A stretch of 56,575 nt of DNA, filler included, from Platydemus manokwari (lineage: Eukaryota), in the NCBI GenBank assembly GCA_037951405.1. It is 4 parts of 4 records of this genome, joined end to end, with 100 filler letters (N's around TTAATTAATTAA, not from the genome) between each part and the next. Parts side by side here need not be neighbours in the genome. Positions count along the whole stretch, not along the records: positions 20,490 to 34,771 come from JBBMOY011490306.1; 3 more parts are not named here. One strand, written 5' to 3'. Both the position numbers and the translations under genes were made by a program. Positions 30,420-31,375 of the stretch are shown here, one piece after another (positions within the stretch are counted from its first letter, which is position 1; the number at the start of each line of letters is the position of its first letter). Under the pieces are notes generated by a model. It saw only the letters and a list, made by a program, of their open reading frames with translations, did no database searches and had not been told where the DNA came from.

Positions 30420-31375
30420 TTCAGCTGAGTATTCTTCATTACTTTCTTCATGCGCTGGTTCTGGTGGCTTCCAGATGGTGTGCTATTTCTTTTCCATCAT
30501 CGTCTGCATATTCTGAATTTCCTTCTGGTGTTGGCTGTGCATCGAATGGTCAGCGCATAATGCTACGAGAATTCTTTTGGTGCATCTGAAGGCTTTTTAT
30601 AATACGTATGTTGTCATTGCACGGCGAAACCGTACAGGTGACATAGATGCCTATGCATCCTGCGAAGATTGTCCCAAATGTCATGAAGCTTCTCCTGATT
30701 TTGTACATGACATTCACGTCGGCTTTTCTATAGCGTTCAGTAGTGAACAAGTTTTCATAGACTGTGCCTTTCGTGACTCATCCTGGTAGATTCGTCGGTT
30801 TATCTCGGTGATTCGTTGATCACGCAGTTGAGGAAACATTAAGGCTTTTTGTGCTTCTTCGATTTAAGATTGTATAGCCCCATATTTTCAAGTGAATTAA
30901 TCCGTCTTTATTAACGCGTCCTATTACACTAAGGTTTAGTATCTGCACCGTTAGCCAGGGTAATCCTCGTGATGATAATGTTATCCAAGCGTTCTTGATT
31001 TTGTTCAGTGGGGAGAAGAGTGGTGTACACGTTACTTTTGTAGGTTTAGCAATTGGCTCCATATATCTAGTCTTCCCTTGATAGGTGACTTTTGTGCATT
31101 CGTGTTTCTGGGCAATCACGACTTCGTCCTCAATGCAATGAAACTCATACCTTGCCATACTACTCCATTTCCATGATGATGGCTTGATTAAATCTGGATT
31201 TGATATTGCAATAGCAAACCTGTTTCGTTAAATTTTCCTGCCTAGTTGGTAGTTGGGTATTAGTGTTTCCTGGTACATTTTGAGTAACTGTGACTGGAGG
31301 TCGTGGTAGAGGAAGTCAACTTTATTTTCATGGAGCTGGGTAATTTGATGTCTTTCTCGTGAAATGTTTGTATGT
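30420..31375 (-). pseudogene. env: Chuvirus/herpes-gB-type (class III) envelope glycoprotein, C-terminal half, decayed
   Basis: Across frameshifts it reads NKVDFLYHDLQSQLLKMYQETL...RNRFAIAISNPD...YEFHCIEDEVVIAQKHEC..VTYQGKTRYMEP...VTCTPLFSPLNKIKNAWITL...SLENMGLY..IEEAQKALMFPQ...FMTFGTIFAGCIGIY...TYVL*KAFRCTKRILVALC. This is collinear with the motif series I recall for chuvirus-like glycoproteins (APD, C.P.EV..C, C.P..PP.Y, GIY...MFP, F..FG..SAG TM). Confidence 0.8.

Follow-up and report, generated by a model that had tools for sequence, protein, structure and literature searches.

A half-length class III envelope gene in the genome of Platydemus manokwari is part of a dead retrotransposon

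The window analyzed here, a stretch of 56,575 nucleotides (filler included) joined from genomic records of Platydemus manokwari (GenBank assembly GCA_037951405.1), consists of AT-rich eukaryotic DNA in which gaps, microsatellites, and spliced genes occur. The host genes include an innexin (38078-39427, minus strand), a multi-LIM protein (42908-43535, plus strand), and an RGS-domain protein (13632-14604, minus strand); in the innexin and LIM genes, introns are about 50 bases long. The innexin motif YYQW was set aside as a marker of the host, since it also appears in papers on insect innexins. Very high-copy repeats lie at 25560-26050 (depth about 20,000) and, beside a sequence gap, at 34311-34760 (depth about 40,000). 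The former had no Pfam match, and its minus-strand reading resembles what we take to be the C terminus of a hAT transposase.

On the minus strand, the stretch from 31374 to 30486 codes for the C-terminal half of a class III glycoprotein of the chuvirus/gB type. The single frame 30550-31374, translated with X at stops, matched the Pfam family PF24664 (Monjiviricetes_fusion) with 29.8 bits (E 2e-7) against a curated cut-off of 27 bits, and the match covered profile positions 305 to 562 of 653. The piece 30559-30774 (minus strand) alone matched positions 521 to 563 (E 0.00038), and the Pfam scan returned no family in the other two minus frames of the env region. An env profile made from natural relatives scored 96.2 bits at this stretch; the three other matches in the six-frame translation of the window scored at most -1.6. 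When frameshifts were allowed, the alignment reached 176.6 bits over env profile positions 311 to 631 of 640, from 31374 to 30486, and the shuffled controls gave 15.0 to 16.7 bits in 12 of 12 cases.

An endogenous chuvirus/gB-like envelope fragment had been proposed at this place in the initial annotation from a series of short motifs, with the lack of a significant profile match named as what would speak against it. The proposal held: the PF24664 score lies above the cut-off, and the fold predicted for a relative (P0005, see below) matches chuvirus-type G and gB. The motifs were all found on the minus strand in the order given, from 31326 to 30658, in three frames: NKVDFLYHDLQ (31326-31294), AISNPD (31209-31192), HCIEDEV (31140-31120), HEC (31104-31096), VTCTPLFSP (31035-31009), GLY (30880-30872), LMFP (30842-30831), and FMTFGTIFAG (30687-30658). 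GLY and LMFP are in two frames other than that of the remaining motifs.

The reading frame is broken by four frameshifts, near 30904, 30863, 30759, and 30623, and by two stops, at about 31230 and 30599; the longer open piece extends from stop to stop at 30820-31227. Single-frame pieces were 22 to 54% identical to the env of relatives, identity to the nearest env sequence obtained was at most 35% over 211 columns, and the family of the element in the window is probably divergent. The N-terminal half of env (profile positions 1 to 310) was absent throughout the window by polyprotein tblastn, env profile, and frameshift-aware alignment. The gene is left without a signal peptide, without the fusion-loop domains I and II, and without an intact frame; since domains I and II are missing, it can be placed in no cysteine-bridge class. 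What is left is a remnant of the class III fusion glycoprotein family, not a working member, and this env copy has no function today.

About 350 bases past env on the same strand, decayed protease, reverse transcriptase (RT), RNase H, and integrase sequences begin (Table 1). This Ty3/gypsy pol had been overlooked in the initial annotation, which was right about the glycoprotein fragment and incomplete about what carries it. The relatives' polyproteins P0003, P0013, P0018, and P0020 were each collinear with the minus strand over env, protease, RT, RNase H, and integrase in tblastn, as was the locus L001; the blocks were 31380-30628 for env, 30133-28733 for protease-RT, 28614-28370 for RNase H, and 28094-27128 for integrase. 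The tblastn matches of the protease domains of the same four proteins began at 30106-30133, and Pfam gave gag-asp_proteas there at E 0.067. Between protease and RT, a DCD match at 29501-29779 was weak (E 0.19). The RT matched RVT_1 with 40.3 bits (E 3.8e-10) and was 35 to 43% identical to 12 relatives in blastp. For integrase, the rve match had an E value of 1.5e-5, tblastn E values went down to 4e-66, and the core was 31 to 43% identical to relatives. The order protease-RT-RNase H-integrase on one strand is that of Ty3/gypsy (Metaviridae) elements. We also take the RT_RNaseH and Integrase_H2C2 domains of the relatives, in which no BEL/Pao-specific Pfam family was found among those scanned, as gypsy marks.

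Table 1. Features of the env-carrying element and its 5' junction (positions along the window)
Feature	Position	Strand	Evidence or remark
Env cut-off by unrelated multi-copy plus-strand repeat	31371..31380		Contig ends, composition flip
Class III env, C-terminal half, pseudogene	30486..31374	-	PF24664 and frameshift-aware alignment
Env membrane-proximal and transmembrane part (FMTFGTIFAG...)	30625..30696	-	Profile positions about 557-577
Env-protease spacer, same composition as env and pol	30134..30485	-	No gag recognizable
Aspartic protease, active-site motif broken by stop	29864..30133	-	tblastn and weak Pfam match
Protease-RT interval, possibly dUTPase-like	29480..29863	-	Aligns to the same interval in relatives
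Reverse transcriptase, decayed	28733..29377	-	YIDD at 28924-28913
RNase H, frameshifted	28370..28614	-	tblastn pieces in three frames, RT_RNaseH region of relatives
Integrase (zinc-binding, core, and C-terminal parts), decayed	27128..28112	-	rve and tblastn
Post-integrase tail	26500..27036	-	RYSLRSQ motif, then weakly hydrophobic stretch; remainder unrecognizable

Thus, a gB-type env directly precedes the protease on the same strand, with no gag between them. Between the env membrane motif and the protease motif lie 207 codons, and in relatives this distance is 126 to 389 codons (median, 193; 13 proteins, with cluster-mates and proteins without either motif left out). GC content is 0.407 in env, 0.405 in the spacer, and 0.409 in pol, against 0.265 and 0.273 in the flanks, and the three parts have a common strand bias in composition. 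Decay is likewise comparable in env and pol, with end branches of 3.3, 2.8, and 1.6 for env, RT, and integrase in trees; stops number 12 in 467 codons of the protease-RT frame and 4 in 243 codons of integrase. After integrase, the RYSLRSQ sequence corresponds to the R/K/P-Y-x-L-R motif found in 6 of 9 long relatives. Downstream of it, the tail has a hydrophobic peak of 1.7 at 26991, and GC content remains at 0.38 down to 26501. The tail had no significant tblastn match to the tails of relatives (best E value, 0.26), and no 3' LTR was found there. About 4.9 kb of the element survives; in the window, repeat searches, self-BLAST, and tblastn revealed no gag, LTR pair, primer site, or target-site duplication for it.

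The 5' end of the element is cut at 31371, and a sequence gap lies at about 34771-34871. Homology to env stops at 31374-31380, and composition flips at the junction from GC 0.41 and T-rich to GC 0.30 and A-rich. Three contigs break off before 31371, and the junction is spanned by one contig (31297-34113); these contigs come from the sole run with the stretch, which may be the source of the assembly, and are not independent support for the junction. Contig depth, a rough guide to copy number, was about 23 over env and 13 to 30 in most bins of the flanks, and the env locus is at about single-copy depth. No RNA run with the env stretch was listed. Four short contigs, with a summed depth of 204, carry a different letter at 31281, which weakly suggests that the run also contains relatives of this env in higher copy number.

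The sequence beyond the junction (31371-33900, plus strand) is an A-rich repeat (A, 0.46) with a decayed reading frame and a depth of 130 to 710 over 31098-33392, compared with about 15 to 25. Within the frame, one stretch resembles a signal sequence (about 31620) and another a membrane segment (about 32702). The repeat lies between two diverged direct repeats, at about 31420-31520 and 33870-33980, whose score was 150; the highest control scores were 119 among 200 shuffles and 120 among 85 control windows. A purine-rich tract precedes each of the two repeats, an arrangement resembling the 3' end of a second LTR element. No Pfam match was obtained in three frames of 31400-33900 and no usable protein-atlas match in two frames, and the post-integrase tails of relatives did not match this region (best E value, 0.15).

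To place the fragment, 1.84 billion proteins were searched exhaustively with the env frame, a single-frame query with about 65 codons off-frame, and 16 matches were obtained at E values up to 0.001. PF24664 was present in all 16, and in 8 of them a protease, gag, or RT domain was found in the same chain. P0004 has a zinc knuckle and a protease motif, P0005 and the env of the L001 polyprotein share 70% identity, and the other six are fragments of 103 to 492 aa, one of which (P0014) groups with the polyproteins P0026 and P0027 at 98/98. None of the 16 carries a viral name; two are named, both as "hypothetical protein." Further searches added the proteins P0023 to P0027 and the loci L001 to L003. 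In L003, an unbroken frame of 2,693 aa comprises a capsid-like region/zinc knuckle, env, protease, RT, RNase H, and integrase. Env is in one frame with gag and pol in L001, L003, P0003, and P0024 to P0026, and the copy in the window is frameshifted. Several relatives have two to seven protease-domain matches, compared with one protease domain in the window, and in P0005, a weak Bcl-2 match (E 0.00096) lies ahead of env. Two side observations concern the database entries. The entry for P0003 (HBK71150.1), which is a complete gag-env-pol polyprotein, assigns it as a hypothetical protein to a metagenome bin of Flavobacteriaceae; it most likely comes from animal DNA in that bin. Just downstream of the L001 polyprotein, a frame at 10617-12107 (plus strand) belongs to the RNase T family of exonucleases (E 1.4e-5), possibly as an accessory gene of that element.

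A word-based search that compared the env frame with longer proteins retained 0 of 361 candidates, and searches aimed at chuvirus G returned only retroelement-type proteins (4 of 6,744 and 5 of 2,638 candidates). In viral contigs, 0 of 7 stretches were retained for integrase and 0 of 63 for env. A sequence search of the PDB with one alignment (A1) matched only aspartic proteases (13 sequences). The fold predicted for P0005 (mean pLDDT, 60.5; pTM, 0.39) had as its best viral model the chuvirus-type G of Tacheng tick virus 4 (E 1.9e-39, 21% identity) and was matched among solved structures by herpesvirus gB (E 1.4e-13). On the strength of this likeness in a model made for P0005, not for the fragment in the window, the env family of the relatives is a class III fusogen.

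Trees of env, RT, and integrase were built from the window rows and retroelement relatives, without any chuvirus G sequence. The groups L001 plus P0018 and P0025 plus P0026 plus P0027 recurred in all three trees, as did P0020 plus P0013 plus P0024, with all RT support values under the starred level. The recurrence of the same groups fits an env that travels with pol. The window rows had long branches (3.3 for env, 2.8 for RT, and 1.6 for integrase) and no supported place. Thus, for the copy in the window, it is position, spacing, and composition, and not phylogeny, that support a common descent of env and pol.

Taken together, the stretch is, with high confidence, half of the env of one dead, 5'-truncated Ty3/gypsy (Metaviridae) gag-env-pol element, a Burro-like errantivirus. 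The env in the window is part of a dead retrotransposon and not a separate relic of an RNA-virus infection. Insertion of a reverse-transcribed chuvirus G mRNA in or beside an ordinary Ty3/gypsy element, as a nonretroviral endogenous element, would account for the abrupt 5' end and for the chuvirus-type G among the structural neighbors of the family, and glycoprotein relics in insects are described as often flanked by fragmentary Gypsy copies (PMC10084718). However, the best matches are retroelement polyproteins, with no named viral protein among the 16 in a library whose coverage of chuvirus G is uncertain, and the adjoining pol is of the very type that carries env in frame. Spacing and composition fit one unit, and no viral N or L family was found among the 23 plus 5 window translations scanned. 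We therefore regard such an insertion as very improbable.

A chimera, in which the env of a BEL/Pao Anakin-like or other gypsy family was moved beside a foreign pol by nested insertion and deletion, is slightly less probable still. The locus is indeed rearranged at 31371, and the trees leave env and pol of the window unplaced, but there is no step in composition between env and pol, the spacing is typical of single elements, and the relatives scanned lack BEL/Pao-specific families. Retention of the env half by the host, whether as a working gene or as an antiviral sequence, would agree with the approximately single-copy depth of the locus. Against it, the stretch of about 890 bases contains two stops and four frameshifts, the signal peptide and the N-terminal half are missing, and the decay resembles that of the adjacent pol. 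Retention by the host is the least credible of the alternatives and can hardly be maintained.

For a single dead retroelement, the following history can be outlined from the protein families involved, with the single Gag-Env-Pol polyprotein seen in the relatives only. While the ancestral element was active, its own protease together with peptidases of the host would have cut the polyprotein into its parts, and Env would have entered the secretory pathway and mediated fusion of particles with other host cells, most likely stem or germ cells. The integrase would have inserted the present copy at this locus, where it presumably decayed without selection. The 5' part, consisting of the 5' LTR, gag, and the first half of env, may have been lost or displaced as another repeat came to 31371.

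The relatives have a further feature after integrase. Among 12 proteins with an integrase core, 10 (9 distinct) have a tail of more than 300 aa, and by simple hydropathy, without a control, two or more hydrophobic peaks were seen in 8 of the 9 distinct tails; three tails open with a further protease-like region, to which some of the peaks may belong. Long hydrophobic tails of this kind were observed in P0003, P0013, P0018, P0020, P0024, P0025, P0026, L001, and L003. An Ig_3 match reached 34.1 bits in P0026 (cut-off, 30) and 25.8 bits, under the cut-off, in P0025. In the window, the pretail motif is kept and no membrane-protein tail is recognizable. It is conceivable, if rather unlikely, that the gag-env-pol elements are endogenous viruses with two glycoproteins, in which a post-integrase membrane protein with a signal-like stretch, ectodomain, and anchor would serve as the attachment protein or partner of Env. 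If so, a second membrane protein would explain cell entry by a lone gB-like Env, and it would matter if shown to be an entry partner. A nonexhaustive literature search yielded no description of such a protein, and the words "immunoglobulin," "fibronectin," and "accessory" are absent from the main text of PMC13524379. The bolder extension that such elements gave chuviruses their G, and not the reverse, is not supported here.

By itself, the env in the window matters little, as one more decayed copy of an envelope-carrying retrotransposon type already described. It does, however, call for caution, since a chuvirus-like glycoprotein fragment in the genome of an invertebrate is not necessarily the trace of an infection by a chuvirus. 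The initial annotation had expected the fragment to bear on the direction of glycoprotein exchange between negative-strand RNA viruses and retroelements. This expectation was not borne out: the fragment is half a gene, on a branch of 3.3 changes per column without supported placement, and for the question of direction, intact members of its group are already available. Such intact elements test the direction of exchange far better than a half gene, and this locus says little about it. The direction itself is contested. Similar glycoproteins in arthropods were read as viral integrations, with no clear capture by Gypsy, in PMC10084718, and such sequences are read as ancient retroelement genes in PMC13524379.

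As reported previously, errantiviruses with the order GAG-ENV-POL and an HSV/gB-type env occur in Platyhelminthes, Nematoda, and Bryozoa, and the supplementary table of the same study has nine flatworm elements, six of them in Schmidtea mediterranea at 1 to 215 copies (PMC13524379). Like the element in the window, they have a Ty3/gypsy pol preceded on the same strand by a gB-type env, and the N-terminal env half of our top relatives has, by eye, short motifs in common with the Platyhelminthes C1a rows of that study. The range reported for this gene order, the by-eye likeness of the top relatives to the Schmidtea rows, the low GC content, the short introns, and the features of flatworm innexins make a flatworm the probable host, and the nonarthropod host expected in the initial annotation is plausible. 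Unlike them, the copy in the window is dead and lacks gag, LTRs, and env domains I and II. With the Jingchuvirales G, such as that of Tacheng tick virus 4, the window shares PF24664, and this G is the top structural match of P0005. In contrast, its identity to this intact relative is at most 21%, it is not among the 16 sequence matches, and the env in the window lies inside a retroelement. Anakin, the BEL/Pao elements of mosquitoes with a chuvirus-like glycoprotein (PMC13524379, PMC10084718), is similar as an LTR element with a chuvirus-like class III glycoprotein and differs in being BEL/Pao, not Ty3/gypsy, and in its insect host.

A further close description is that of the giant planarian gypsy elements Burro/GYPSM1, in which env lies in frame between gag and pol and matches mononegavirus glycoproteins, a dUTPase-like region lies between protease and RT, and decayed fragments are found in Dugesia japonica (PMC6431247). 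The window is Burro-like in its env before pol, its extra region between protease and RT, and its decayed state. Only about 4.9 kb is left here, and the part that would have to be compared with Burro for giant size and for BCL2, BIR, ankyrin, and MATH domains is missing from the window. Thus, the env-before-pol arrangement has already been published (PMC6431247, PMC13524379), and the element of Platydemus manokwari is a decayed further case of it.
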